NCBI GenBank assembly: GCA_003990765.1 | Contig: RBNJ01000157.1 | Coordinates: forward strand, 1-38,730 | Direction of reading: 5' to 3' | Source: Jimgerdemannia flammicorona | Taxonomy: Eukaryota | Length of the DNA stretch: 38,730 bases | Shown here: in pieces, positions 2,950-38,730 of the stretch | How the letters are laid out: every line of letters begins with the position of its first letter | Position numbering within the stretch: position 1 is the first letter of the stretch | Notes under the pieces: generated by a model | Seen by the model: only the letters and a program-made list of their open reading frames with translations | Told to the model about the DNA's origin: nothing | Database searches by the model: none | Program-made: the position numbers and the translations under genes

Positions 2950-3955
2950 GCTTTCATGCCATTTGCTTGATTTATCAATCCCCTGCAATGTTGATCTCGA
3001 GCTCGCCATTGCTCACCCGATAGATCTCTCCAGTTTCATCACCAGTGTTGTCAAACTTCTAGTGCTTAATGATATCTCAACTGGCGACATTGCTTGCAAC
3101 ATCATTACCACCAGCATTATAAGTGACAATGGATTTGTTGAGGTGGACCTGTATAATATATGGCCATGTCCCAATGATGTCTATGCTACTGTCAGGTGTA
3201 AATATTAAATTCCTAATTTTACAGATAGTAATCAATTATCATCAATTTCTGTTAAAACAGTAGGGTAGATCTTAAACATATTTATTATAGCAGATCTTAT
3301 GACAAAGATTGCCTTTGATAATATTATATTTTTGTTAGCAATAGATTTAGATTCTTATAATTATAGTAAACTTCTTACAATGTATTTTAAAAAGGAGGCT
3401 AATATTTCCTCATACTACTTTTAGTAGATATGTAAGGATTTATTTTTATAAACTTTTTAAGAAATATTTTAATAAAACCTACTTAAGGATAATATATAAG
3501 CTGGTACAATTTCTATAATCAAAAAGAGTTCTTAAATCAAGGTAGTTTAATAAGTAGTATTTATTACTCTAAAATTTATTAATTATAAATTCTGTCTACT
3601 TATTAGTAGTCTTATTATATAATTAGAATATATAGTTTTTAGATTTATATTTATTATATTTTAAGTATATAATTATCTAGCAAATATAAACTATACTAAT
3701 GATATTTTATTTTAGTAAAGTAGTTCTTATTAGCTAACCAAATTATAATTATTTATTGTTATAAAGATTAATTTTCTGATTTTTTACTATTCAGTAAGTC
3801 TGTCTTTTTTTTTTTAACGGATTCAGTAAGTCTGTCTATATAGATATCAGCCAGTCAACTTAAGTATATAACTGGATTATTTATTGATTAGATAACTATT
3901 TAAATTTTATTTTAGCTAGCTAAAATCTAATTTTAGTAATTATATATTTATAATC
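2950..3955. mobile_element. Degenerate AT-rich transposon-like relic between the aminopeptidase and MET3
   Basis: Abrupt loss of CpG and excess TA, the same texture as the 21-38 kb TE block. A minus-strand coding-like frame is broken by TGA/TAG stops. Family not recognised; ends approximate. Confidence 0.5.
3789..3837 (-). repeat. 17-bp direct repeat (ATTCAGTAAGTCTGTCT) flanking a 15-bp insert with a poly(T) run; TSD-like micro-insertion
   Basis: Copies at 3789-3805 and 3821-3837. The insert reads CCGTT-A10 on the minus strand. Confidence 0.75.
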
Positions 3956-4041
3956 ATCAATTCCATGTCGACAGAGGACTACCAATCAAGATGTCGAACA
4001 GATTGCGTGCTCGATCGCGACTGCCATGCGCGCAACTATAA

Positions 4042-20599: not shown

Positions 20600-20871
20600 A
20601 CTAAATAGATGGATGGCGGTTGTAGGGAACATGGCCTAAGTTGCTCGGCTGTTTTGGGGTCGAACAATGTTTCTTTTCTTTTACCTAAACAACGATCCGT
20701 TACCTAGCTCTAAGCATATATACACGAGATGTAACGGCAGATAGTTACTTGTGGATAATATTGAAAAATACACTGACGTAATCTGTCTTCGGCTAAAGAC
20801 GAATTTCCTAATTTGCATACCATTTTCTGAATGCCACTTTTCAAGGCGTCGTGATACATATATATATATAT

Positions 20872-21193
20872 TGTCACGTAGTGGTCGCTGAGTCCTTCAA
20901 ATATATCAGATTCTCTTCAAGGTGTATCTCTTAGACTAACTACAAGTTTGTTATAAGCAAGTTCTTATTGGAGTGCCTTCCCAAGGTCTTATAGTCCTCA
21001 AACTTCTTATCTTTAAACTGTCTTGTCATCTCTTAGATTGCTTGCATGGAATTGAGTATAAGTGAACTTGACTGACTTTATTTCAAAGGAAATAAGAGGG
21101 CTATTTATACAAAATATAATTCAATAGTTACTAAGATATAAGGCTAAATATAAATTCCAATAACCAAATAAAATACTGGAACACAGAAAACTT
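20872..21193 (-). mobile_element. 3' part of an LTR of the same family as the 22.8-31.6 kb gypsy, inverted and truncated
   Basis: Reverse complement matches about 24038-24396 (e.g. ACAGTTTAAAGATAAGAAGTTTGAGGACTATAAGACCTT and TTTCCTTTGAAATAAAGTCAGT). Ends ...CTACGTGACA next to a (TA)n run. Confidence 0.9.
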
Positions 21194-22508
21194 GTTTCAG
21201 ACATTCTTTACCACTCTACAGTATTTTGCCATCATTTTCAAGCAATGAAAAAGCTTTCCATCGACATTTGTAACCACATCATCCACTTACTGCAATCTGG
21301 TTTATCTACACACAAGATTGCCAAAGAAATCAATTTGAGTGCGATGACAGTAAACCACGTAAAAATGGTGTATTGCAACAATATTCCTTCATCAAAAGGT
21401 GGTTGTCCAGCTATGTTTTCAGCCTGGGATGAAGTATGGATCACCCACCAAGTTACAATTGGCAAAGCAGATAATGCCACCAGAGTTGTAAAAACCCTTC
21501 AAGAAAGTAGCAAAAAGGTGAGCCTTAGTATGGTAAAATGAATGCTCCAAAAGGCCAGCCTCAAAGTATACATGAAGCAAAAGAAACCACTTTTGCTACC
21601 TCACCACATAAAGGCACACTATGAATTTGCCATGAAATACAAGCATTGGATAGTTGCTGACTGGAAAATCATTGTGTTTTCTGATGAAATGAAGATTAAC
21701 TGTTTGGGCTCTAATAGACGTGAATGGATATAGCATAAATCGGGTGGTGGTGGGGAGCTTCAACCGAACCAGGTGACTGGAATGCTAAAATTCAGTAGCA
21801 GATTGTTAATGCTTTGGGAATGTATGATATATAAGGGCATTGGATATATATGCCAAATTGAAGGCCAAATGAATGCTGAATTATATACTAGTATTCTTGG
21901 TAATGAATTGCTTCGAATAATCAAGTATTACAAACTTAATCAAAAAAAGATCACCTTCTAACAGGATAATGATTCCAAACACACGTCCAAAATAGTGCGT
22001 GAATAGTTCAAAAACAACTCTATCCACATATTAGACTGGCCAGTGCAATCGCCAGACTTCAACCCCATCGAACATTTATAGTGTAAACTTAAAAAATGGT
22101 TGAATACATATGACGAACCACCTGAAGGAATACTGGAATTATAGGAGTGTGTATAGCATATATGGAATAATATTCCTAAAGATATTTATATTAAATTAAT
22201 TAAAAGTATGCCCAGGTACATTGCAGCAGTATATAAAGCCAAAGGTAGATATGTTAAATACTAAATAAAAATAAATAAGAGGTTTGGATGGCCAAGAGGG
22301 TCAAAACTATAACAATGGTAATATAACTTAAAATGGTTATATTAATGTCTATATTTATCCAAATAAAATAAAAAATATACCATTTAAAAGCTGAGATACT
22401 ATATTATTAATGGTAAAAATTTGGATTTTATTATATTTATATTGAAGCTATAATATAATTATATATAAAAAATAACTAAACATTGTTACAGTTTTGGCTG
22501 TCACTGTA
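21194..22508 (+). mobile_element. Tc1/mariner DNA transposon (DD34E); right TIR and TA present, left end lost
   Basis: Right end ...GTTACAGTTTTGGCTGTCACTG|TA at 22506-22508 (CAGT-type TIR). Contains the transposase at 21245-22264. Confidence 0.9.
21245..22264 (+). pseudogene. Tc1-like transposase pseudogene, 340 codons in one frame with several nonsense codons
   Basis: HTH N-terminus, KKPLL, IVFSDE, QDNDSKHTS, WPVQSPDFNPIEHL and SMPR..AV.KAKG. There are 34 residues between the second D and E. No frameshift; the stops are explicable by C>T or G>A changes. Confidence 0.93.
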
Positions 22509-22802
22509 TCTCTTTCTCCACTATCATACTGATCACAAGGTTTTGATAGACAATCTTCTGAGTTTCTTTTCTATAACTTATTTTCTCTCTATTTTAGATT
22601 GGTTTGTTATATCTATTGCAGAACAGTAAAAAGGAGGCAATAGTAATAAGTTGCCCCTTTATCAGTATCAAATTGATACTTTCTCTACTTTTTTATAGTT
22701 TCTGATACCTCTGGCTATATTTGAAGTATACTTATTTTGATATAACACTTTTTTTCTTTTACTATCATTAATAAGATATTATTATAGTATATTATAAACT
22801 AT
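22509..22802. repeat. Repeat X, left piece (host element split by the gypsy insertion)
   Basis: Aligns with about 37589-37880 and continues at 31644 after the gypsy element. Confidence 0.8.
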
Positions 22803-24396
22803 TATAATAGAGATCTTGGAATGGTGACATTATTACAGAAAACAGTCTTTCCTTATAAGCTACCAGATTAGAGCATAAGAAGATCATATGGTATGACTTA
22901 CTCAGACTACAAGATGAGCAATAATGACTAACTATGAGTCATAATGATCACAAGATAGATATCTCAAAGAATATAAAAGAAGGACCAGAAAACTACAGTA
23001 GTAGTAACTCTAATAAAAACTCACAAAAATCTAAAATAGTTCAAAAGACTCACTATAAATAAAATGTCTATTGCTCACCAAACTGTAAGGTCTAGGAACT
23101 ATCAAGGCTTCTCAGTCCAAGAAAGGATATTCCAAGATATCAGGAGAACTATAAGAACCCATACTAGAAGAATTCCTAGCCTCAACTTAGGCACTAGTGA
23201 TCCTTATCACTTTACTCTCTACTATTATAAAATAGAGACAAGGATCACTATTACTATTGAATATCTCTAGATGTAGCAGAAATATGAAATAAGAAATCTC
23301 CTCTACTAGAAATTCCCTCAGGTCAGTCTCTAAAAGATAAAATACTATCTCTATAGATATATATAAATTGAGAGTAGCTAAAAAGATTCATCAGATCTTT
23401 AGGTATATATATATCTTAGTCAATTCTCAACTTGAAGTATATCAGAGTCTCAGACTTTAAGGAATTATCAGCCTACTATATAGATATACTAGAAGCTATA
23501 GTGGCCACAGAAGCTCAATCTACTATTACTCTCAAAAGTGATGAGATAGAAGAGTTCTGGAATCCCATTCTCAAGAATAATCCAGATCAATTTCTGCAAG
23601 AATTAATCTCAGTATTTCAAGGCCCCAGTATTCATGTCAGACCCCCTCAAGATTCTATCTTTGTCTCCTACTTTATAGAGGAAAATATCATAGATTGAAG
23701 AGCCCCTGATCTCTTTTCTGCTGCTATTGAATATGATGATATCACTAGTGATAATATCATCTCACTAATTGACACATATGAAATAAATGAAACAGAAATA
23801 TTTGCTGACCATATTTTCTTCAAAGACATCCTGTCCCTAACCTCTAGCCTTAATGATAGTAATAAAGATAAAGTCTCCAGAATTCTGAACATTCTACTTT
23901 AATTTATTTATATAACTATTTGTTTGAACACTTGAATATTCTAGCATCCTGATCTTATATAACTGTCAGAAATTATTTCAGCATTCTGATCTTATATAAT
24001 CAATTATATAGATACTTAAATTTGTACTTACAACCTGAAGTTTTCTGTATTCAAATATCTTATTTGATTATTAGATTTTATATTTAGCTTTATATCTTAG
24101 CCATTATTGAATTACATTCTATATAAATACTCCTCTCATTTCCTTTGAAATAAAGTCAGTATTAAAATACTTAAGTATTTAAGTATCTAATTACTTAAGA
24201 GTACAAAAGTTCTAGTTCTCTACTCAATTCTATATAAGTAAATCCAAGAGACAATAGAACAGTTTAAAGATAAGAAGTTTGAGGACTATAAGACCTTAGA
24301 AAAGTACTCTAATAGAACTTGCTTATAAGAAATTTATAGTTGATCTAAGAGATATACTTTAATATATTTAGAGAACTTAGTACTTACTATGTGACA
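22803..24396 (+). repeat. 5' LTR (1594 bp)
   Basis: TATAAT(from TGTAAC)...GTGACA termini, colinear with 30074-31643. TATA box at about 24120-24129 and AATAAA at 24149-24154. Confidence 0.93.
23064..23902 (+). pseudogene. LTR-embedded ORF of unknown function, 5' LTR copy
   Basis: ATG at 23064 (MSIAHQTVRSRNYQGF...) to TAA at 23900-23902. Two small frameshifts relative to the 3' LTR copy. ORF-track pieces 23064-23270 and 23432-23698 are parts of it. Confidence 0.65.
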
Positions 24397-24449
24397 ACTT
24401 AGTATCCATTAGCTGATAATATTATTAAGATCTCTCACTTTCAAGCTGA

Positions 24450-27400
24450 ATAATGAATAACTACCTCAATAACTACTCTGACTATAAGAGTCACCTTCTG
24501 TAAGAATTTAAGATAAGATAGAAATATATCCTCCCATATTCTATAGATTTACTACTGAAGAGTTAATCTTGACCTTTATTAAAGACTTTAAATAATTTGC
24601 CACTATATAAGCTCTTAGTGTTGAAGCACAATTAGCTCTTCTACCTATCAGTCTCAGAGAACTTGCCAGAGATAAGTTCAATATAATCACCATTGCCAAC
24701 AATAGTATAGCCAAACTCACCAATATAAAGAACTTCCTCAGAACTATATACTATATTAAAGAGATCAAGTAAGCTCTTAAAGATCAACTCAATACTATCT
24801 GCCAAGGACTTAATGAAGACCCCAACTCATTTTACACTCAAATCTGCTACCAGATTGTCTTTGCTAACTATGATGACATCCTCAAGGAATAGATAGCTGA
24901 TTCAATCTTTCTAAAAAAAAGTCTACCATAAAATTACCCTAGCAATCTGATCTATTCCAGCTACTCTGACCCTTGACCAGAAAGTGGTCTTTGTACAAAG
25001 ATATTGGACTGCCAGACACTTTGTTAAATATTCAATAGAAAGGATAACTGGTATCAAGATAGAGCTATTAAAGCTAATCAATATTATACCCACTATAGCT
25101 CTTAACAGACAACTATCTCCACTTACTCCCAAGATGACCAAAGCCAATCTAGTAGAGAAACTCCCCCAGTAGTTTACCAAGATGACTGTACATCTTGGTA
25201 ATATTATTAGAGAAGTATGAAGTGCTAATAGGAGACTAGTACAGAAGTTTATAGCTACTATAGAGAAATATATCATTACATACTTCAAATATAGAGAAGA
25301 AGGCCACTATATAAAAAATTACATGACCAAAATAAGGCACAGAGTCCAATCAAGTAATACTACTAGAACTAGAGAATAAACTAATATAGTAGTCATTAAG
25401 GAGATTGGTAATACTGATAATGAAGAATACTATGATGAGTCTAAATTCTATCCTGTTACTGAAGATATCAGAACCTAGTCTAAGCCCTATAATAAGAAGG
25501 ACAATAGCAAGCCAGTTGGAAGACCAAAAAAGACCTCAACCATTACTATTCAAAGTAAGATCCAATCTGAGGAGATTGACCAAGATATAGAGTTAGATGA
25601 AGCTGCCTACCAAATTATTGAAAGCACTACTCCAGTCTCAGGAAAAAGTGAAAATAAGAAAGAATAGAAGCTGCATAAGACTAAGATCCATCAGTATGAT
25701 ATCTATAAAAACCTTAAGGAATAGAAGATCAATACTACTTTTGGACAACTAGCAGAAGTTCCTGCCTTCAGACAGCAGTTGAGAGCAGAACTTATAACCA
25801 CTGTCAAGAACTAACTGTATAAGATCATAGAAGCTCATAATGTATAAGAAGATGAATAAGAAGACTTAGGTAAAGAATTTGAAGATCAGCACAAGACCTC
25901 AGCCTATATGCAATATCAGATTTAAGATTATATCTTTAATGCTATCATTAATACTAGTGCTGAAGGATACCTTATAAGCAAAAAAGCAATTGACCACCTA
26001 GGCTGAGATATTGAAGAATTTACCAAAATAGTCTATATTACAGTAAATGGTATACAAGCTACCCCCCTAGATAAGATCTGAGAAGTTTCTATAAGATCAG
26101 AAGAGCTACCATTCTAGTAGATGTAATCATTATGAGTACTACTAACTATAATATACTCATTAGTAATCAATGGCTTTACAAGACCAAGACTATTGTTGAC
26201 CTTAATACCCAAAAGATACAGACCAACTATAGAGGAAGAAAGATATGAGTCTCTATCAATATTTACAAAAAGGTACTATCAGATATAGAAGAAGAAGATA
26301 AAGAGAATACAGAAGTCTTTATATACTCAGTATATAAGAATAAGAGCAAGACAACCAAGCTCACAGATGAGCAGTAGTATAACAAGATTATTGATAACTA
26401 TACTTCTCAAAGAAAATGCCCCCATAGTACTAGAATGTACTGCTCCAAATACCTAAATGACTACTGGTTCTGTACTAGTGAAGTTAGAAAAATCCATTAA
26501 TAAAGATATGAGTAAGAAGTAGCTGAAGTAAAAAAGAAAGTTAAAGAAGATGACCAGTCTCTAGAGCTTCAAGCTGATAGTAATAATGAGGAGGAATAAG
26601 AACCAGACATCACTCTCAAGGTTAAGAAGTTTTACCCCAAAGCTAAGATTCCAAAATACAAGACTGAAAAAGCTATAAAAATAGGCCTTACCAGCATCCA
26701 AGATGCTATCCTTAAACCACAAACCACCACTCTACTTGGTACTGAAATTGGAGTCAAGTTACCAGAAAACTATTCCAGAATTATCAAAATCAGAAGCAGT
26801 CTGGTCAAGAGCAAAATCTCAGTTAAAGGAAGAGTCATTGACCCTGATTACACTGGTGAGATCTTCCTTATAATCAGGAATCACAACTCCACCACTCCAT
26901 TCAAAGTCAAGAAATATGACAAGATTGGCCAGATACTAATCTATGAAGTTAAGAAGTTTAAGATCATTGAAGTCATTGAACTTATCAAGACTAAGAGAGA
27001 AGAACAAAGCTTTGAATTTACTGGAAGAGGAGCCTATGCTACTATCAAAATTACTGAACTCAAGTATAAGAAAGACAAGAACCAGAACAAGCACATATAT
27101 ATCATTGGAGAAAACTTTCTCCTAGAAGAACAACTTTTTAAGATCCTGTACCAGAATGAAGAAGTACTCACTACAGACTTCAGAGATATCCACAATCAAG
27201 AACCTAAGTACTACTATGAAGTTGATACTAGTGATATCAAGCCCATTTATCAGAAAGTCAGATCTATACCACCTGCTTACAGAGAATAGCTGTGAGCAGA
27301 ACTCAAGAAAATGGAAGAAGCTGGTATCATCAAGCAAGCTATTAGTCTCTGGGCTTCACCCATTATTCTTACTCCAAAGAAAGAAAGTAAGCCTGGAGAG

Positions 27401-29710
27401 TTTACTCTACAACTCTGTATTGATTATAGGAAGCTCAATGCAATTATCAAAAAGAATAGACAGCTCTTACCAAATATTCAAGAAATCCTTAATACTTTTA
27501 GAAGTGAAGCCAAATACTATACCACCTTAGATTTGTTCTCAGGCTTCTATCAGATCAGTCTCACTTAAGATATCAGTGAGAAATCAGCCTTTATTACATA
27601 TGATGCCACCTATGTCTATCTATAAATACCATTTAGAATATATAATACCCCAGTAAGTTTTCAGCAAATAATAAATAAAGTCTTCAAATGAAATTAAAAA
27701 ATGACTCTTGTCTATGTTGATAATATGATCATCTTCAGCAATACTATATGGGAATATATTAACTATATACAGCTAGCTCTCAAGAAGCTCAAAGAGTATG
27801 GCCTCTATATCAAGCTCAAAAAATATAAGTTTTCAGCTCAAGAAATTGTCTACTTAGGACATATCATCAACCAGACTGGAATTTATATAGACTCTATGAA
27901 GATTGAGGCTATTGTAGCCTATCTAAGATTTAGAACAACTACAGAAGTCTATGTCTTTCTTAGACTGGCCTCCTATTATAGAAGATTCATCAAAGAATAC
28001 TTCAATATTACAGCATCTATCTATAAGCTACTGAAGAAGAAGATCAAGTTTGAATGGACTAAGGAATGTCAAGAAATCTTTAATGAACTCAAGACTAAGT
28101 TGATCTAAATACCTATTCTCAGAAGACTAGATTGGAATCTAGAGTTCATCCTACAGACAGATGCAAGTACTATAGAACTTAGAGTAGTGTTAGCTTAGAA
28201 GAAAGATAGATATGAATATGTCATCTCCTATATATATAAGCTAAGATACCTATAGAGCAAAATAGAACTATAAGTTATATAAGCTTGAATGCTTAGCAGT
28301 AGTCTGGGCAGTAGACAAGTTTCACTACTACTTAGCTGGAAAATACTTTACTATTCAAATAGAGTATTCTGCTCTTACCTGGCTATTTCATACTCTGAAC
28401 CCCAAAGAAATATATATCAGATAGATTTACAGACTGCAAGAGTATCAACACCATCTAAAAAGAACTAATACCAATACTGATATACTCTTAAGGATACTCT
28501 GAAATACCCCCATTAAGACTATTCAACATGAATAAGGAGCTATGTATACTATAGATTAATTAGCTATCTTAAGTAGTGGAAGATATCTAATTACCTTAAA
28601 CCCTAAACTATTACTATTATTAACTAAACTTAGAAACAATTTGAACTAGATAACACCATACTCAGAAAAGGAGAAAAGCTCATTATACCTGAATATAAGA
28701 AGTATTAAGTAATGAAGGAAGTATATGAACAAAGATATTTAAAAGGAATCAATATATACAATAAGGCAAAAAGAATCATGTAATGGTCTAAGATAGAAGA
28801 AAACCTATACCAATTTATCAAAAAGTGTAACAAGTACTAAAAACAGAAATAAGATCAGTAAGACCAGATACCCAGATTATCAAGAATCAAACCTATTTTC
28901 TTCTACCACATTATAATAGATATTATTGGATCACTACTAGTAACTCTATTAGAAAACTGCTATATTATAGTTATTGTAGATCTCTTTACTAAATAAATAG
29001 AAGTAGGAGTATTACAAAAAGCTAATACTCTCTCTATTACTAACTTCCTGTACCAAGAAATCATCTGCTACTATAAGACACCAAATTACTACAGACTGTA
29101 GTACAGAATTTGTCAACAGATTCCATAAGATAATATATCAGAAATATAAGATTTAGTATATCAAAACTACTATATATCACTCTCAAGAAAATAGACAGAT
29201 AGAAAGAACAAATAAGACCCTTAAGAACATCCTGGCCAAGATCTCAGACACATATGAGAATTGAGATAATTATCTCTCAACTACTCTCTTCATCCAATAA
29301 GATATATAGTTACAGAGTATACACTTTACCCTATCTTCAGAGAAGAAAATTCTGATAGAATCTTAGCCACAAATCAAGACCTACTTAGTAATAAATTGAC
29401 TCAGAAATCTGAAAACTATACCAAATCAGAAAAAAGGTAGAATATTATATCACTAAGTCACAAGTGTTAATAAAAAAGAATGCAGAAAAGAATCATAAAA
29501 CTTTAGAACCCATTCAAATTGGAGAAAAGGTCCTACTTTATCAAAATATAATAGAAGTCTTATAGTTATAAAAACTGAAGCCCAAATAGGAAAGACTCTT
29601 TTATATACAAGATATCAAAAGAACTACCTTCTGGTTTAGAAAACTCTCAAACCATACTACTTACTATAGTATATAGGAATAGACTCAAGAAATACCATGA
29701 ATCTATATAA
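24450..29710 (+). pseudogene. gag-pol pseudogene
   Basis: Gag QGLNEDPNSFY; zinc knuckle YFKYREEGHYIKNY (from CxxCx4Hx4C) at about 25280; protease AIINTSA (from DTGA) at 25941; RT WASPIILTPKK, LCIDYRKLN, LDLFSGFYQI, YVDN (from YVDD); RNase H ILQTDAS; integrase IVDLFTK, YHSQENRQIERTN, IGEKVLLY and RNRLKKY. Ends approximate. Confidence 0.92.
26600..27025 (+). pseudogene. Trimeric dUTPase domain within pol, between protease and RT
   Basis: LKVKKFYPKAKIPKY, IRSSL (motif II), RVIDPDYTGEI (III), YDKIGQIL (IV) and TKREEQSFEFTG (motif V, from RGxxGFGSTG). Stop-free and in frame with RT (27311-26600 = 711). Missed by the ORF track. Confidence 0.92.
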
Positions 29711-30073
29711 GAGAAGTAAAATATAATGACCATCTATAAAGCTAGTCTATAAATCATAACAGCATATTCTATAACTAGTAGATAATCTGTCAGAACTATT
29801 CTCTAAGAGATATGATACTAGCAACTACTCATTTATAAGACTTTCAAAGCCAGAGGAGTTCAAACCATCAACTAATTAGTCAAGATCAGAATCAGGCCCT
29901 TGTTCTATATAAAGAGAGCTACTCTTCACCATTATGCCAAAATATATAAGGAAGATACTAGTTCATAAATACCACTTTTTGACCCTCTGCCAGAGGTTAT
30001 GGGATCAGAAAATTTTTCAGACTGAATCAATAAATAAGAACATTCAAGAGAAGATTCTTATTTAGAAGAAAGA

Positions 30074-31643
30074 TGTAACAGTAATCTCAGAATGGTGACA
30101 TTATCACAGAAGACAGCCTTTCTTATAAGTCACTAGATCAGAGTATAAGAAGATTATATAGCATAACTTACTCAGACTACAAGATGAGTAATAATAACCA
30201 ATTATGAGTTATGATAACTATAAGATAGATATCTTAAGAAATATAAAAGAAGGACCAAAAAACCATAGTAGTAGTAACTCCAATAAAGACTTACAAAAAC
30301 CTAAAATAGTTCAAAAGACTCACTATAAACAAAATATCTATTACTTACTAAACTGCAAGATTCAGGAATTACCAAGGCTTCTTAGTCTAAGAAAGGATAT
30401 TCCAAGATATCAAGAGAGCTATAAGAACTTGTACTAGAAGGATCTCTAGCCTCAACTTGGGCACTGGTAACTCTTACTACTTTATCCTCTACTGCTATGA
30501 AATGGAGATAAAAATTACTACTACTACTGAATGCCTCTGGATATAGCAGAAATACAAAATAGGAAATCTCCTCTACTAGAAATTTCCTCAGACCAGTCTC
30601 TAAGAGATATAAGATACCACCTCTATAGATATATATAAATTGAGAGTAGCCAAAAAGATCTATCAGATCTTCAGGTATATACCTTAGTCAATTCCCAACT
30701 TAGAGTATACCAGAGTCTCAGACTTTAAGAAATTGTCAGCCTGCTGTATAGATACACTAGAAGCTATGGTGGTCACAAAAAGTATCACTCTCAAAAGTGA
30801 TGAGATAGAAGAGTTCTGGAATCTTATTCTTGAGGACAATTCAGATCAATTTCTATAAGGATTAATCTCAGTATTCCAAGGCCCCAGTATTCAGATCAGA
30901 CCCTCTCAAGATCTCACCTTTGTCTTCTATTTTGTAGAGGAAAATATCATAGATTGGAGAGCTCTTGATCTCCTTTCTACTACTATTAAATATGATGATG
31001 TTATTAGTGATAATGTCATTTCACTAATTAATATATATGAAATGAATGAAACAGAAATATTTGCTGACCTTATTTTCTTTGAAGACATCCTATCTCCAAT
31101 CTTTAGTCTTGATGATAGCAATGAAAATGAAGTCTCCAGAATTCTGAACATTTTACTCTAATTTGTTTATATAGCTATTTATTTGAACACTTGAATATTC
31201 TAGTATTCTGATCTTATATAACTATTAGAAATTATTCCAGCATTCTGATCTTATGCAACTAATTATATAGATACTTAAATTTATACTTACAATCTGAAGT
31301 TTCTTGTATTCAAATATCTTATTTGATTATTGAATTTTATATTTTAGCAATTATTGAATTATATTCTATATAAATATCCCTCTCATTTCCTTTGAAATAA
31401 AGTTAGTATTAAAATACTCAAACATTTAAGTATCTAACTACTCAAGAGTAGCCCTCTACTCAATTTCATACAAGTAAATTTAAGAGATAATAGAATAGTT
31501 TAAAGATAAGAAGTTTGAGAACTATAAGATCTTAGAAAGATACTCTAATAGAACTTACTTATAAGAAACTTATAGTTAATCTAAAAGATATATCTTGAAG
31601 AGAATCTGACATACTTGGAGAACTTAGTACTCACTATATGATA
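30074..31643 (+). repeat. 3' LTR (1570 bp)
   Basis: Starts TGTAACA directly after the PPT, ends ATGATA (from GTGACA), followed by the TSD CTAT. Confidence 0.93.
30334..31161 (+). pseudogene. LTR-embedded ORF of unknown function, 3' LTR copy (276 codons, single frame)
   Basis: ATA (from ATG) at 30334 to TAA at 31159-31161 with no frameshift. Internal stops are TAA/TAG only, and several are CAA in the other LTR. Confidence 0.7.
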
Positions 31644-32150
31644 CTATATAGGAAGTCAGTCAATCTTTAGTATCAAGTACTAGTATAGATTATCTGCAGG
31701 TTGTCAGTACCTATAATAGAGCTCTCTAAACTTTGGCAAGCTTCTCAGTAAGCATAGTTCTGATATAGATAATTGTTTTTCAGATAGTATTAGAATAAAA
31801 GAGAAGGTAGCTATCACAGATAGGAAGAAGAGTAATAATAGTGAGCTAGTCAGATATTAGGCTGAGGGTAGTCATTAGAGTTAGAATAGGTATTATCTCA
31901 GTAAGGCCCTTTGATTGGCTGGCAGATAGTGGGGTAGTATTGTAGCTAATATTTTTGCTATATTTAATTAGAACTAGAAGCTGACATAGTAATATAATTG
32001 AGGTCCACAGGTTTGAGAAGTGAGACCTTCCTTATTTAGCAGTACCTGACTAGAACTAAGAGCTGATATAATAATATAATTAAGATCTATAAACTCAAAA
32101 AGTAGAATTGGAGTCTTTTTAGATCTTAGTCTATATATCAGTCTTTTTGA
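31644..32150. repeat. Repeat X, right piece
   Basis: Aligns with about 37877-38362 and includes the same ~80-bp internal tandem duplication. Confidence 0.8.
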
Positions 32151-32449
32151 GGAGATCTTATACATATATATAGTATACAGTACTTATACTCAATCTTTTG
32201 ATTATAACTTTATATTATATATAATAAAAATAAAATAAAAATTATAAATTGATATAAAATTTCATTAAGTTTAATCAAATAGAGAGTTTTTTTTTATCAT
32301 CATTTTTTATATTTGCATTAAGATTAGTCATAATTTCAGCCTTAAATCTAAAGCTGAAAAGTTAAAATTTAGTATTAATTATAAGTCAGTCTTAAGCAAA
32401 ATTTAACTTTAAAAATAAGTCAGTCTAAAGTAAAATTCAATACTATCAC

Positions 32450-33356
32450 TCTGATACTCTGGCAAAATAGAACTAATTACCAAGAGATCAAACTTATCTC
32501 TATTATCCAAATAAAGAGACTATCTTATAAAAAGAGAAATATCTACTATATCTATATAGTAGAAGAGATAGTAAAAGCTTCAACTAGCTTAGTCCCATCA
32601 GAAGCTCAGAAACTCTTTAAGAAATTCTAAGATATTTTCCAGAAATCTACAGATATTTTACTCAAGCATCAAATTTAACATAAGATTGATCTTATTCTAA
32701 GAGCAAAACTCTCATATGGTCTAGTCTAAGCTCAAAGTCCTTTAGATCTTTAAAATTAAGGTATTCTTTTTGCTAGATTTATGAAATAGATATTACCAGA
32801 TTCTTATTGATGAGAAGAATATAGAGAAAACAGTCTTCAGAATATAGTTTAGATACTACCAATTCTAAGTTATATCTTTTGATCTAATCAATACTCCTGT
32901 AATCTTATATCTCTTATTCTGTAATATGATTTAGTCAAATTTAACTTTAAATTTTTAAATTTTTTTTTTTGACTTGATATTTATTATAAAATTATAAATA
33001 TATATATATGAAATAAGTTAGAAAAGTTGAAAAAAATAATTGAATTTTTTTATTTATAATTTAATTTTTATTTTTATTTTTATAATATTTTTATATTAGT
33101 TTTTTTTTTTTTTTTTTTATAGCCAAATTTGGCTGTATTGTATAAGGGATATATCTTAGTATATATTGATGATATTATAATTTATAGTGAAATAGTTAAG
33201 TTGTATTATACTTATCTATAAAATATACTAATTTTACTATAAGAACACTAGTTCTATATCAAGATGAGCAAGTGTAAATTCTACTAAGACCAGATTAAAT
33301 ATCTAAGATATATCATCTCAGCTGATGGTATCAATATAGATCTCTGAAAGATATTA
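32450..33356 (+). mobile_element. Relic reverse transcriptase of a second Ty3/gypsy family, internally deleted and interrupted
   Basis: F*DIF..HKIDLI.RAK..YG, LDL*NRYYQILIDEKNIEKTVFR, VISFDLINTP (from MSFGLTNAP), LVYIDDIIIYS, KMSKCKF and YLRYIISADGI. Confidence 0.85.
32906..33153. mobile_element. MITE-like insertion with degenerate terminal inverted repeats inside the RT relic
   Basis: TATATCTCTTAT...AGTCAAATTTAACT on the left versus AGCCAAATTTGGCT...ATAAGGGATATA on the right. AT-rich non-coding core that splits the RT motifs. Confidence 0.55.
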
Positions 33357-33359
33357 GTT

Positions 33360-36300
33360 CTATAGGATATTTTTATCTCTACTATTCTTAAGCTTCTTTA
33401 ATAATAACTTAGCAATATATAATCCAATTTTAATGATCTTAATATCATTAGAAAGGCCTTATTAAGGGCTTTCAAATGATTAAATTTAGATGATTATTTA
33501 TCAAATTATTGATATAAACATTTAATTGTCTAATTTGGAAATTAAAATAATGATTGATTCAAATCAATCTGAATCCAATTTAGATTAAATTGACTCATTA
33601 AGAGTACTATATATCATTATTAATATATTATAGTATATTTATTTATTTATATTTCTTTATCTTTTATATAGAGACAAAGAATTGCATATATAATAAAGAT
33701 ATGTTGAATATATGTCAGGTAGAATACAAATTATCTTAATATTGAATTTCTGTAAAACCCATTAAGCTAGTAGTAAGTTTCACTCAATAATTTTAATTTT
33801 GATAGCTTATTCAATTTGAACTAATATAATCTCTATTACCTAAAGAAATATAACTATTTCATTTATATTATAATAATTATATAAAGTATATATCCAGTTT
33901 ATACTTATTTGAACTAGAAATACTATTGTGGTAATTTATCAGATATACTTTTTACCAAAGTCAATAAGTATAATTATATCTATATATATAATCCTTTGCT
34001 TTACTCTATATTCAAGGGCCAATTTAAGAGTAATTTATATAATATAAGTTATACAAAGTAATATTTTTATAGTACTTATTCTTTTTAAAGAGATGGATAT
34101 CAGTATTAGTATTATTATATAACTCCAAAATGAGATATTTGATAGTTGTATATTTGGAGCAGATAGAGTATTGAGTTTGATAGTTTAACTATTATATAGT
34201 ATAATTAGCTCAAATGATATATATTATACTTCTAAAGATCTTTATACAAAACCTTACAAACTATATACTGATAATATTAAAGAATCTTCTTTTTAAATAA
34301 ATATATTTGTAGATTATAACAATAAGTAATTTTTATTTAAAGTTGATAGAAATCAGCTAAATATACTAATAAGTAGCTAATTTATATAAGCTAATAAATA
34401 GCTTATTTCTACTAATTTTTACCATTAATTATATTTATTTGGATAAGATGATGAAGATTGAAATTTAAAATTATCATTTAGAAGTATGTATTTGAACTAT
34501 AATATTATTATTTATATTTCTCATTAAGCTTTCAAAACTTAGAGAGAACTTAATTATTTATATATATACTATTATTTATATTTTTTCAGAAATTAGAGAA
34601 AACTTAATTATTTAAAACTATATAAGCTATCAATTATTTATATGAAGTTTATTTTAATAAATATAATATATAAATATACTTATGATCTTCTTCATTTAGA
34701 TATATCTCTTTACTATTTTCAAACTTCTCTTATTTCTTCATTATAGTAGTCTAGATAATATTTAGTTACTGATATATTTCTGGTAAGCTAACTATACTAA
34801 TTATCCTGAGAATATTATTTATTGGGATTTCTATAACAATTCCTCAAATTTGATTTTAGTGATGACTATATAAATTTAATATATATAATTAGATTCTATA
34901 ATATATAAGTAAAAAATACTCTCATTATGTAAACTTACTAAATACTAATATTCTCTAATCTAGTATCTTCAATTGGTACAATTGAATCAAACTAAATAAT
35001 ATCTTTGATCTGTAATATAGTCTGTAATTTGAATGTATGAAGACTAGTCAAATAATCTCTTCAAATATATATTAGTACAGATTTTATTGACTATATAGTT
35101 CTTAAACTTTGTTTATTGCATAATATTGAAGTTGAAAGTTTTGTTGACTAGATCTCCTAGAAGACTAAACTTGGTACTATGTTGTTTATAGATAAGAAAT
35201 ATCTTATCAGAATTAAATATTAATTATTTATACTGGTGGTCTTTATTAAGGTTATAAATATTCCAAAGAACAGAAGTGAGCTCAGAAATAAGACCAGTCT
35301 TAATAGCATTAAGAACTTGTCTCCTTATATTGCTTAGCCAATAGATTATCTATAAATAAAAGATAATTAGAAAAAATCAAATATATATAAAAAAGAGAAA
35401 TATATATAAATATAAATATACTTTTAAATATTTCACAGTTTAATCCTTAGTAATTAATATATTGATATTAAAATCCATATTGTTAGATATTTTTTTCTAT
35501 TGGGCTATATATTGATAATAACTATATATCTAAGTAACTTAAGCTTAGTAGTATATTTTTGATCAAAATATATATCTTTGGTTTCATCTTATATTTTTCA
35601 AGAAGTTTCAAATAGCAGAGTATTGTAGGAGAATTTTGAGCTTGAATAATAATAGATGATATTAGATAGAGAGAACTTCAGTAGAGAAGATATTGGTAGA
35701 AGAGAGATAAAATGATGATTGATAGATAATTTGACTTATACATTATATAGACAAGTATGAGAGAGGTAGAAAAGAAGAAAAGAGATAATGAGAGAAAGTA
35801 AGAAGAGTGGGAGAGATATGTTAAAAGACTGTACTTTTATATTATTAATAAGAATAAAAATTGCTTATACATATAATAACTAGCATATATTGACTAGCCC
35901 ATATATTAGCCAGCCTATTAATAAGAGTATATATTGGCCAGCTTATCAACAAGAGCATAATATATTAATTAGTCCATCAATAAGAGTATATATTAGCTAG
36001 TATATATATTAACTAGCCTATTAATAAGAGCATATATTAGCTGATCTATTAATAAGAGTATAATACATTGGCTAGTCTATTAATGAGAGTATATATTGAC
36101 CAGTATATATTAATAAGCTTAGCATATATAATCAGTCACCACTAATATATATTGATAAATATATTGGTTAATATATACTAATTATTATACAAGTAATTCT
36201 CATTAATAATATATAATATATACTTATTAACTAGTATATATTAGATAGTATTATATATTGATTTAGTATATATTAATAAGCTTTCAGTATATATAACATA

Positions 36301-37300
36301 CATATATACTAAGTCTCTTAAGCTTAAATTATATTATTAATCAATTATATTGAACTTTTTGATAGATCTCAAGCTTCTTAAACTATTATAAATTATTATC
36401 TAAAGTAGTAATAATTAGAAATTAGCATATTTCAATCTTTTAAGGAGTATTTATATATATTCTTGCTAAATTCTATAGATTTTTCTATATAATGAACTTA
36501 TAAAGATATTATGATATAAAAATATAACTGGGTTTTGTATATATATATATATTATCAGTAAATAGCATAATTACTATATAACTATTATTGATTTTTACTA
36601 AAATTTTTACTATTTATAAAAAATATTATTATAATATAATTCTTCTATAAATCTATATTAAACTATTAATATAACTATTATCTTAGGAGTATGAAAATGT
36701 TCTCAATATATTTATTTTCATTTATATGGATTTTTGATTATAAAAATAATAATAGAAGTCAGTATATCCCAGATATATATCTCAGTGAAAAATAATTCTA
36801 TATGACTCTTACTGAGATATCCTTAACCTACTTAGATATAAATTTTCTTAATATCTTAAGATCTATAAAACCTGCTCATTTTTATTGAGATTTTATATTT
36901 TTTCTTTAATATGAGGGGTGGGGTTCTGTATTTTTTCTATATAGAAGTGACTATTTTTCCTTATCAGCAAATTTGCTTACTTGATCTGATTGACTAGCTG
37001 CTCAACTTAATTGGCTAACTATAGTCAGCTTATTGATCTCTAATTTATTATATTCAGTCTATACTCAGGACTATATATTTCACTATAAAATAATCTTAAA
37101 TTAAAATAAGAATTTGATTCAATTTAAAGTTCAATTTAAATTTAGTATAATAAAAAATATTAAATTTAGATATATTATTTTATTAAGTTATTATATTCTA
37201 AATTAAGATAAATTTAAATTAAATTATATTTTTAATTTAATTTAAATTAACTCTAATTTAATTTAATTTAAATTGATTTAATTTATTTGAAAGTACTAGC
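33360..37300. mobile_element. Heavily decayed DNA-transposon debris; family not identified
   Basis: CpG-free and very AT-rich. Minus-strand coding-like and intron-like remnants at about 33650-35740, a tandem array, and two similar ends (...AGTACTA at about 33608 and 37298) preceded by AATTT/AAATT short repeats. Confidence 0.45.
35880..36300. repeat. Degenerate tandem array, unit about 28 bp (approx. AGYATATATTRRCYAGYCYATYAAYAAG)
   Basis: Repeated AAGAGYATATATT..C.AG motifs with C/T and G/A variants. Confidence 0.75.
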
Positions 37301-37586
37301 TAAAAATATTATTATAATATATAGATTTATTATCTAATTAATAATCATTATTATAAACCTATATAGTTAAATGAGAACTATTGAGTTATTCTTCTATATA
37401 TTAGAGTTCTCTATACAGAGAATAATCAGATAAAGACAATACTATATTTATCTCAAACTATATATACTATATATGTGATTATACTTTTATAGATATTATA
37501 ACTATCTCTATTATAGCCTAGATATATCTAAGATATTCTGCTGTCCAGTATATTAGAGCTTGACAGAGATATCAATAGTACTAATA

Positions 37587-38362
37587 TATCTCTTTCTCTG
37601 CTACTTTACTGGTTATAAGATTTGGTAGGTAACCTTTCAAGTCTCCTTTCTCCTATTATTACCTCCTTTATCTTAGATTAGTTTGTTATACTTATATAAG
37701 CATAGTGGAAGAAGGACAATAGTGAGGAGTTGTCTCTTTATCAGTATCAAATCAGTGTCTTCTTTACTTTTTCATAATTTCTAATACCTCTAGCTATATC
37801 TAGAGTATACTTATTTTAGTACAGCATCTTTGTTCTTTTGCTATTATCAATAAGATATCATCTCAGTATATCATGAGCTGCATAGGATATCAGCTAACCT
37901 TGGACATCAAGTGCTAGTATAGGTTATCTGCAGGTTATTCAGTATCTGTGATGGGGTTTCTAATAAGTATAGCACTAGTATAGGTGACTGTTTTTTTATA
38001 TATTATCAGAATGAGAGAGGAGATGGCTGTCATAGATAAGAGGAAAGATAATTATAATAAATCAGTAGGGTACTAGGCTGGGGACAGTTGTCAGAGTTGA
38101 GGCAAATATTATCTTAGTAGGGCTTTCTGATTGGCTGATAGAGAGTGGAGTGGTATAGGAGCTGGTATTCTGGCTATATTCAACTGAAACTGAGAGCTGA
38201 TATAGTAATATGATTGAGGTCTATAGGCTTAGAGAGTGAGATCTTTCTTATTTAGCAGTATCTGACTGGAATCAGGAGCTGATATAGCAATATAATCAAG
38301 GCCTGTAGGCTCAGAGAGTGAGAGTAGGGTCTTTTCTAGTCCTAGCCCATATATAAGTCCTT
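37587..38362. repeat. Repeat X, second uninterrupted copy (possibly part of an LTR; may extend further on both sides)
   Basis: Contiguous homolog of 22507-22802 plus 31648-32150. Differences are mostly transitions. Confidence 0.8.
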
Positions 38363-38730
38363 TACTTACTCACTTTGAATCTACTTTGCTTTCTGTTGAT
38401 TGATTGGGGGGTTTTTCTTTATCTCAGACTTTCTTTTGGAGTTTGGAGGGCTATTCTTTATTCAGTCCTAGCACTGCTAGATCTAATGCATAGATGTGCT
38501 CTTGTGTGTAGTCATGATGATCTAGCCCTGGTGAGTAGACAAGTCTGGTCTATGTCATGGGGGTCAGTATAGCTGGTGTTTGACAGGCATAGCTAGAGTG
38601 ATGGGACTGCCGAACAATTTAGTAATCTAGGTTAATAGGGAGATAATGTTTGGTGGGTGGTGGGGGAGGGTTTTGGCCTATATAGTCTAGGTTCCCTTCC
38701 AATAAAAATCTGCAGGACTATGAGTCTATA

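Follow-up and report, generated by a model that had tools for sequence, protein, structure and literature searches.

A probable gene relic in the long terminal repeats of a Ty3/gypsy-type element from Jimgerdemannia flammicorona

The window described here is a stretch of 38,730 nucleotides (nt) of Jimgerdemannia flammicorona DNA (contig RBNJ01000157.1 of assembly GCA_003990765.1), and our subject is a decayed reading frame that is carried in both long terminal repeats (LTRs) of a retrotransposon. The window has a gene-rich part at positions 1-21000, where the GC content is mostly 0.43-0.58, and an AT-rich part that runs from about 21000 to the window end at a GC content of 0.19-0.36; the retrotransposon lies in the latter. 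Self-BLAST and pairwise alignment revealed a direct repeat pair, 22805-24394 and 30076-31641, with 83.5% identity over 1603 columns, and the LTR boundaries given in Table 1 were set by inspecting the ends and flanks of this pair. An earlier note on this DNA had put each LTR at about 1.6 kb, in agreement with the lengths that we measured (1594 and 1570 nt). The 5' LTR terminates in GTGACA and the same terminus is present in a third, partial LTR copy. That the repeats are true LTRs is supported by their TG...CA ends, partly decayed to TA, by the target-site duplication, by the polypurine tract next to the 3' LTR and by the gag-pol sequence that they enclose (Table 1). Pfam searches of the region between the LTRs returned RVT_1 (E = 8.2e-21), dUTPase (3.1e-16), RT_RNaseH (9.9e-13) and RT_RNaseH_2 (1.1e-10), the order in pol being reverse transcriptase (RT) and then a Ty3-type RNase H. 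Because a dUTPase, RVT_1 and two Ty3-type RNase H families lie between its LTRs, the carrier is a Ty3/gypsy-type element; it is 8841 nt long (22803-31643) and bears a dUTPase.

In the 3' LTR one frame of 276 codons (828 nt), at 261-1088 in LTR coordinates, runs without a frameshift to a terminal TAA. Its eight internal stops comprise five TAA and three TAG, and its final open run is 100 codons long. Column-by-column comparison of the two LTRs shows that three of the 3' stops, all TAA (codons 6, 19 and 175), read CAA in the 5' copy, that two 5' stops (codons 69 and 208) read TGG in the 3' copy, and that five stops (codons 71, 82, 90, 93 and 118) are common to both. The start ATG is retained in the 5' copy, at 23064. 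Our translation and comparison thus uphold what the earlier note had read in these LTRs: an unbroken frame of this length, internal stops that are all TAA or TAG, three of them CAA in the 5' copy, two 5'-copy stops that are TGG in the 3' copy, an ATG kept on the 5' side and a last stretch of about 100 codons free of stops. In the 3' copy a 9-nt deletion is in frame; in the 5' copy a 2-nt deletion near 23337 and a 4-nt gain in a TA repeat near 23404 both shift the frame and so spread the homology over three frames. The two frameshifting indels, the in-frame 3' deletion and a second TATA box upstream of the ORF (open reading frame) are details beyond that note.

The openness of the frame was compared with dinucleotide-preserving shuffles. 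These contained 22.8 +/- 4.3 stops, against the eight observed, and a count of eight or fewer arose in 1 of 5000; an open run of at least 98 codons arose in 12 of 5000. Stop density per codon is 0.029 in the frame versus 0.091-0.094 in the six frames of the remaining LTR.

Intact relatives of the encoded protein were found. When the frame was read through, with X at each stop, and used as the query in a first search of 5.8 billion proteins, five clusters matched it, the best being P0001, a protein of 271 amino acids (aa) that is 62% identical over 98% of the query (E = 1.6e-92). In the reverse direction, tblastn of P0001 against the window matched the 3' copy in a single frame at E = 1.4e-94. 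A profile search of 1.84 billion representatives at 50% clustering returned five proteins at E <= 0.001, the longest of them 342 aa, with no longer fused form among these five, and a profile search of 90% clusters returned 12 clusters among the best 8000 candidates scored. All 12 have ENA or JGI sources and come from environmental contigs of 567-4848 nt, and none comes from NCBI or UniRef; all 12 lack Pfam domains and are named, if at all, as 'hypothetical protein'. Four subfamilies are visible (P0001-like; L001, P0009 and P0012; P0010; P0013-like), with 26-50% identity among them and intact ORFs of 271, 291, 325 and 342 aa distributed across the four. Six sequences that span the subfamilies begin with MP..R, and conserved blocks such as W-x-EYEI, AKK-x-HQ-x-FRH, NP-x-LQDNPDQ and F-x-GP-x-I are common to them. 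Judged by these matches, the gene is a member of a small, unnamed family of 271-342 aa whose intact members lie on environmental contigs. The C-terminus of P0005 is family-like through a D-L-I-S-F-E block and then continues for about 48 unrelated residues, which could reflect a frameshift, a junction or a chimeric contig.

The positions of the stops agree with those of particular residues in the relatives. All eight internal stops of the 3' copy, and all seven of the 5' copy (including codons 69 and 208, both W), stand opposite Q or W in P0001; at the codon 82 stop, P0001 has Q/W and three other family proteins have R. Stops at such positions fit the decay of CAA, CAG and TGG codons by C-to-T and G-to-A change. 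Between the two LTRs, in an alignment that takes in about 25 nt of flank at either end, we counted 223 transitions and 25 transversions; the 135 C/T difference sites lie in the contexts CpA (67), CpT (35) and CpC (33), with none in CpG. The TA/AT ratio is 1.06-1.13 in the repeats versus 0.68 in the genes. Directional change is also seen within the protein family: from P0013 to P0014, a single C>T or G>A change would account for 27 of the 45 residue differences and the reverse for 5, and from P0013 to P0016 the figures are 11 of 16 versus 2, while the comparison of P0001 with P0002 is symmetric (10 against 11). One-directional differences of this kind suggest that some family members are decaying as fungal repeats do. 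After insertion of the element, RIP-like C-to-T and G-to-A decay struck both LTR copies and converted Q and W codons into stops. The central proposal of the earlier note, a protein-coding gene lying inside the LTRs of a gypsy-type element, is borne out by the intact relatives and by the 8/8 agreement of stops with the relatives' Q and W positions, and the frame is very probably a pseudogenised copy of a genuine protein-coding gene, present once in each LTR.

One intact relative, L001, was recovered at the DNA level. This contig of 1535 nt has a GC content of 47% and contains an intact ORF of 291 codons at 376-1251; it emerged from a metagenome scan with P0010 as the query; a metagenome scan with the first family alignment gave no confirmed locus, and scans of viral contigs and of genome contigs for related DNA loci found none. 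By tblastx, L001 matches the window significantly over the ORF only, at E = 2.9e-31 for the 5' copy and 1.0e-24 for the 3' copy. No frame is open in its flanks (375 nt and 284 nt), and these have no match in gag or pol. At the level of DNA, no alignment between the flanks of the ORF in L001 and in the window rose above shuffles, the score of the upstream regions being reached by 35-40 of 500; the 20 nt that precede the ATG are similar between the two. Identity at codon positions 1, 2 and 3 is 48, 64 and 36%, in a protein-guided alignment that makes the pattern partly circular. A protein that is conserved over several intact lineages, in flanking DNA that is not conserved, is as expected of a gene under purifying selection. 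L001 also contains an imperfect 28-nt direct repeat (86%) at 170-197 and 1481-1508, the two units being 1311 nt apart and placed around the ORF near both contig ends. A 9-nt string is common to L001 at about 1441-1452 (about 192 nt past the stop) and the window at 31367-31380 (206 nt past the stop, after the downstream TATA box); the positions agree, and the string is estimated not to be significant alone.

Candidate control signals stand on both sides of the ORF (Table 1). The downstream box, TATAAATA, is followed by AATAAA, with equivalents of the two in the 5' LTR at 24122 and 24149, and the pair is kept in 3 of 3 LTR copies. The earlier note had placed the ORF upstream of the LTR TATA box, and this proved correct: TATAAATA begins at 31369, 3' of the ORF end at 31161. 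The arrangement is an ordinary one for a junction of U3 (the unique 3' region of the LTR) with a short R, and it favours a location of the ORF in U3, which the earlier note had proposed and which is plausible; exact boundaries of LTR regions require RNA data, according to the part of PMC3601003 that we consulted. The upstream box, TATAAAAG, has a parallel in L001, in which the only match to TATA[AT]A[AT] in 1535 nt is found 80 nt 5' of the ATG, within a loosely similar block. A TATA box 80-92 nt before the ATG suggests an ORF-proximal promoter rather than splicing. A promoter of its own for the LTR gene fits the sequence better than the alternatives, yet we regard the proposition as nearly balanced, with the scales tipped slightly against it.

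These signals can be assembled into a scheme in which each LTR of an intact element would be a nested transcription unit. The TATA box about 80-92 nt 5' of the ATG would drive an mRNA of about 1.1-1.2 kb that would end at the LTR's own poly(A) signal, and the genomic RNA of the element would have its start 3' of the ORF, at the TATAAATA box that immediately precedes this signal. The ORF would be located in U3 and yet need no splicing for its expression, whether from either LTR of an element or from a solo LTR. A gene so placed would be present twice per element and would persist in solo LTRs.

The protein itself has few features by which it might be named. No Pfam family matched the window frame at E <= 0.01, and with 10 family members at E <= 1 the sole match was ATG5_HBR at 0.088, in 2 of the 10; PDB sequences gave no match at E <= 10, and a profile comparison with the element's own gag found no relation to the LTR ORF. 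In the ESM Atlas the best feature score, 0.83, was at chance level and all template-modelling scores (TM-scores) were below 0.5. The earlier note had proposed structure and fold searches as a way to the identity of the product, and these did not deliver it: AlphaFold2 models built from seven and nine sequences had a mean predicted local distance difference test score (pLDDT) of 36.2 and 45.8, were mostly helical over the first two thirds, and the second of them had no Foldseek match in PDB at E <= 0.001, a result that means little at such confidence. The distribution of charge is more distinctive. P0001 has a net charge of +8 over residues 1-60 and of -23 over residues 151-270, the latter in keeping with the acidic tail that the earlier note had described, and the polarity is similar in three other subfamily members. 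The acidic tail includes hydrophobic and aromatic residues, among them a recurring D-L-I-x-F and a terminal L-N-F-L. As predicted from its members, the family has a basic N-terminus, conserved blocks set in a helical core, and a C-terminal third that is acidic. This composition resembles that of nuclear activators, and the likeness is no more than a resemblance; the likeliest role, on composition, would be a nuclear one in which the protein regulates how the element itself is expressed or silenced, though we consider even this improbable and put it forward as a suggestion.

Other accounts of the ORF and its expression must be weighed against the nested unit. The ORF might, as the earlier note proposed, be translated from a spliced or subgenomic RNA of the LTR promoter, in the manner of sag in mouse mammary tumour virus (MMTV) or nef in human immunodeficiency virus (HIV), and have no promoter of its own. 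The location of the ORF upstream of a TATAAATA-AATAAA pair that is retained in every LTR copy would suit such a route, as would a layout that leaves about 240 nt for R and U5 (the repeated and unique 5' regions), which is usual for LTR elements; but a TATA box 80-92 nt 5' of the ATG, in the window and in L001, would be superfluous for a purely spliced mRNA, and splice signals are not judgeable in DNA so decayed. We hold this route to be unlikely. The upstream TATA box might instead be the main LTR promoter, which would place the ORF in R/U5 as the first cistron of the full-length RNA and as a leader ORF before gag. L001 has its single TATA[AT]A[AT] 80 nt 5' of the ATG and none downstream, just as a leader ORF would have it, but the layout in the window speaks for something else: the AATAAA at 24149 lies 247 nt short of the 5' LTR's end and would stop most transcripts ahead of gag, and gag itself would begin only after a 276-codon ORF, some 1.5 kb from the cap, with an R region of about 1.1 kb. 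A leader ORF is in our estimation quite improbable.

The gene might also be a passenger, a cellular or foreign gene that was captured once into the LTR, with ordinary stand-alone genes as its relatives and no role for the element. An LTR context has been observed only here, and the flanks of L001 align with the window LTR no further than blocks of about 25 nt, as might be expected of a captured gene. Yet an ordinary gene sits poorly with 12 clusters of which none comes from NCBI or UniRef or is named beyond 'hypothetical protein' and all lie on contigs of at most 4848 nt; the one-directional C>T/G>A decay of some members is typical of repeats, and several intact lineages have already diverged among the closest relatives. 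A captured passenger is, in our view, very unlikely. That the frame stays open by chance, or only seems open because C was preferred to T and G to A in comparing two decayed copies, has a vanishingly small probability. A two-copy consensus with this C/G preference does open 92-101 codons on the minus strand as well, where the raw frame has a 101-codon run, but the independent intact proteins, with E values down to 1e-92, all match the plus frame and none the minus frame, and the shuffle test for stops gave 1 in 5000. The intact protein relatives and the intact ORF of L001 rule out a chance or artefactual origin of the frame. The minus-strand open stretches were considered as a gene in their own right and rejected; their place differs between the window and L001, and they have no database protein match.

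Several observations weigh against the interpretation that we prefer, in which a gene relic borne by the LTR was expressed as a nested unit and encoded a regulator. The LTR residence of the gene is observed in this window alone, its relatives being proteins and a single 1.5-kb contig in which LTR ends, pol and gag are not seen. The codon-position pattern is partly circular, and the case for selection draws on one intact DNA copy, that of L001. The upstream blocks that L001 has in common with the window are not significant alone, given that 35-40 of 500 shuffles reach their score, and TATA-like strings are frequent in AT-rich DNA, with 8 and 15 matches in the two LTRs. L001 has no TATA[AT]A[AT] and no AATAAA or ATTAAA 3' of its ORF, a misfit with a conserved second promoter. 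The expression route is inferred from sequence alone, and the poor structure models (pLDDT 36 and 46) leave composition as the sole guide to function. The classical index of repeat-induced point mutation (RIP), (CA+TG)/(AC+GT), is 1.08-1.12, which by the customary thresholds is not depressed, and it is for this reason that the decay of the LTRs, to judge by its pattern, is described as RIP-like and is not called RIP. With all of this taken into account, the combination of an LTR-borne gene relic, a nested transcription unit and a nuclear regulator is the best overall explanation, and we favour it narrowly.

Genome annotation masks the LTRs of retrotransposons, which are regarded as control regions that code for nothing, and coding capacity inside an LTR is, to our knowledge, textbook matter only for a few retroviruses. 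The sag gene of MMTV, which encodes a superantigen, lies in the U3 of a retroviral LTR. The LTR ORF is like sag in that it runs for several hundred codons in the sense orientation and is contained entirely in an LTR of more than 1 kb, upstream of the LTR TATA box; it differs in having no Pfam family match, a fungal host and a Ty3/gypsy carrier without env. No match to the Sag or Nef families appeared in Pfam, at E <= 0.01 for the window frame and E <= 1 for 10 members, or in PDB at E <= 10. The nef genes of HIV and simian immunodeficiency virus (SIV) and the tas/bel genes of foamy viruses are 3' accessory genes that overlap U3. They only overlap it, whereas the ORF described here is entirely within the LTR and hence is present twice per element, and neither nef nor tas/bel has a sequence or fold match to it. 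Foamy-virus Tas is a nuclear transactivator of about 300 aa with an acidic C-terminal activation domain and an internal promoter; the charge polarity and the ORF-proximal TATA box found here are reminiscent of it, a likeness at the level of composition that is speculative.

Extra genes are also on record in fungal elements. The brtn gene is an antisense extra gene of the Boty/BcGypsy1 elements of Botrytis cinerea (Zhao et al. 2011, cited in PMC8365987), and, like the LTR ORF, it adds a reading frame of unknown function to a Ty3/gypsy element from a fungus. The comparison is one of descriptions: brtn is antisense and the excerpts of PMC8365987 at hand do not state an LTR location, whereas the ORF here is sense and LTR-internal. 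A dUTPase is reported by Novikova et al., in the portions consulted of PMC2864245, for the fungal gypsy elements PosPlaTy3-5 (Postia placenta) and Tmt1 (Tuber melanosporum) and for elements of Phanerochaete chrysosporium, and its place in our element, between the protease region and RT, is the position given there for PosPlaTy3-5; an 'add. ORF' of those dUTPase elements appears in a figure legend in the same portions, without a place or a sequence. The phrase 'ORFs within the LTRs' in the relevant part of PMC6673714 was considered as a precedent and set aside, its meaning being ORFs between LTRs. Among the papers listed on extra ORFs in fungal LTR elements, on LTR ORFs and on U3 accessory proteins in fungi, none, judged by title and abstract opening, describes a fungal retrotransposon with a sense ORF in its LTR.

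LTR-embedded accessory genes are already known, and the relic described here would be one that belongs to a new protein family and sits in a fungal gypsy element. A conserved sense ORF in a fungal gypsy LTR would add an accessory-gene layer to the biology of fungal retrotransposons and would define a protein family without known relatives, and solo LTRs would become possible carriers of a trans-acting factor. At its fullest, the idea is of a 'complex' fungal Ty3/gypsy lineage in which every LTR would be a full gene, with promoter, 270-340-codon ORF and terminator in U3, for a new nuclear regulator, basic at its N-terminus and with an acidic, activation-like tail, that would boost transcription or counter silencing. 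We offer this lineage as a tentative and rather doubtful proposal; if it were true, the factor might go on being provided in trans by solo LTRs once the body of the element was gone.

Table 1. Positions in the window of the element, its gene relics and its candidate signals
Feature	Position	Strand	Details
5' LTR	22803..24396	+	1594 nt; begins TA (decayed TG), ends CA
3' LTR	30074..31643	+	1570 nt; begins TG, ends TA (decayed CA)
Third LTR copy, partial, inverted	20865..21193	-	last ~350 nt alone, without any part of the ORF
LTR gene relic, 5' copy	23064..23902	+	ATG kept; 7 internal stops; two frameshifting indels
LTR gene relic, 3' copy	30334..31161	+	unbroken frame; 8 internal stops; ATG decayed to ATA; in-frame 9-nt deletion
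TATAAAAG, candidate promoter of the LTR gene	30242..30249	+	92 nt 5' of start codon; 5' LTR counterpart 22972-22979
TATAAATA + AATAAA, candidate LTR promoter and poly(A) signal	31369..31401	+	TATAAATA 31369-31376; AATAAA 31396-31401, 27 nt later; presumed U3/R area
Internal gag-pol region	24397..30073	+	heavily decayed; dUTPase ~26639-27019; RT ~27407-27868; RNase H after RT
Polypurine tract AGAAGAAAGA	30064..30073	+	directly abuts 3' LTR
Target-site duplication CTAT, 4 bp	22799..22802 and 31644..31647		CTGC in uninterrupted paralogous repeat near 37870

The remainder of the internal region is less well preserved. Only weak Pfam matches were obtained for a protease. There was no rve match at E <= 1 in three frames of 28300-30073, where an integrase-like string can be seen by eye in the read-through translation, and gag had no Pfam match; a knuckle-like string with Y for C, also seen by eye, would fit G-to-A decay. 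The flanks of the element, 22507-22795 and 31630-32147, are together collinear with an uninterrupted repeat at 37587-38363: the gypsy element sits inserted in an older repeat, and the uninterrupted paralogue later in the window represents the empty site.

A decayed Tc1/mariner-type transposase occupies 21200-22801 on the plus strand (DDE_3 at 3.1e-10, HTH_Tnp_Tc3_2 at 3.3e-7), between the gene-rich part and the gypsy element. Beyond the element, 31644-38730 is extremely AT-rich debris with a GC content of 0.19-0.24, its sole coding trace being a weak RVT_1 match at about 33147-33312 (8.2e-5, under the Pfam cut-off). An AT-rich island at 3001-4000 within the gene-rich part, with a GC content of 0.25 and a TA/AT ratio of 1.10, may be a further decayed repeat. 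The host ORFs recognised by eye from translations of 1-21000 include a fragment of an M1-type aminopeptidase, an adenosine phosphosulphate (APS)-kinase-like ORF, a fatty-acid desaturase-like ORF and one that resembles a secreted polysaccharide/chitin deacetylase with a Ser/Thr-rich tail.

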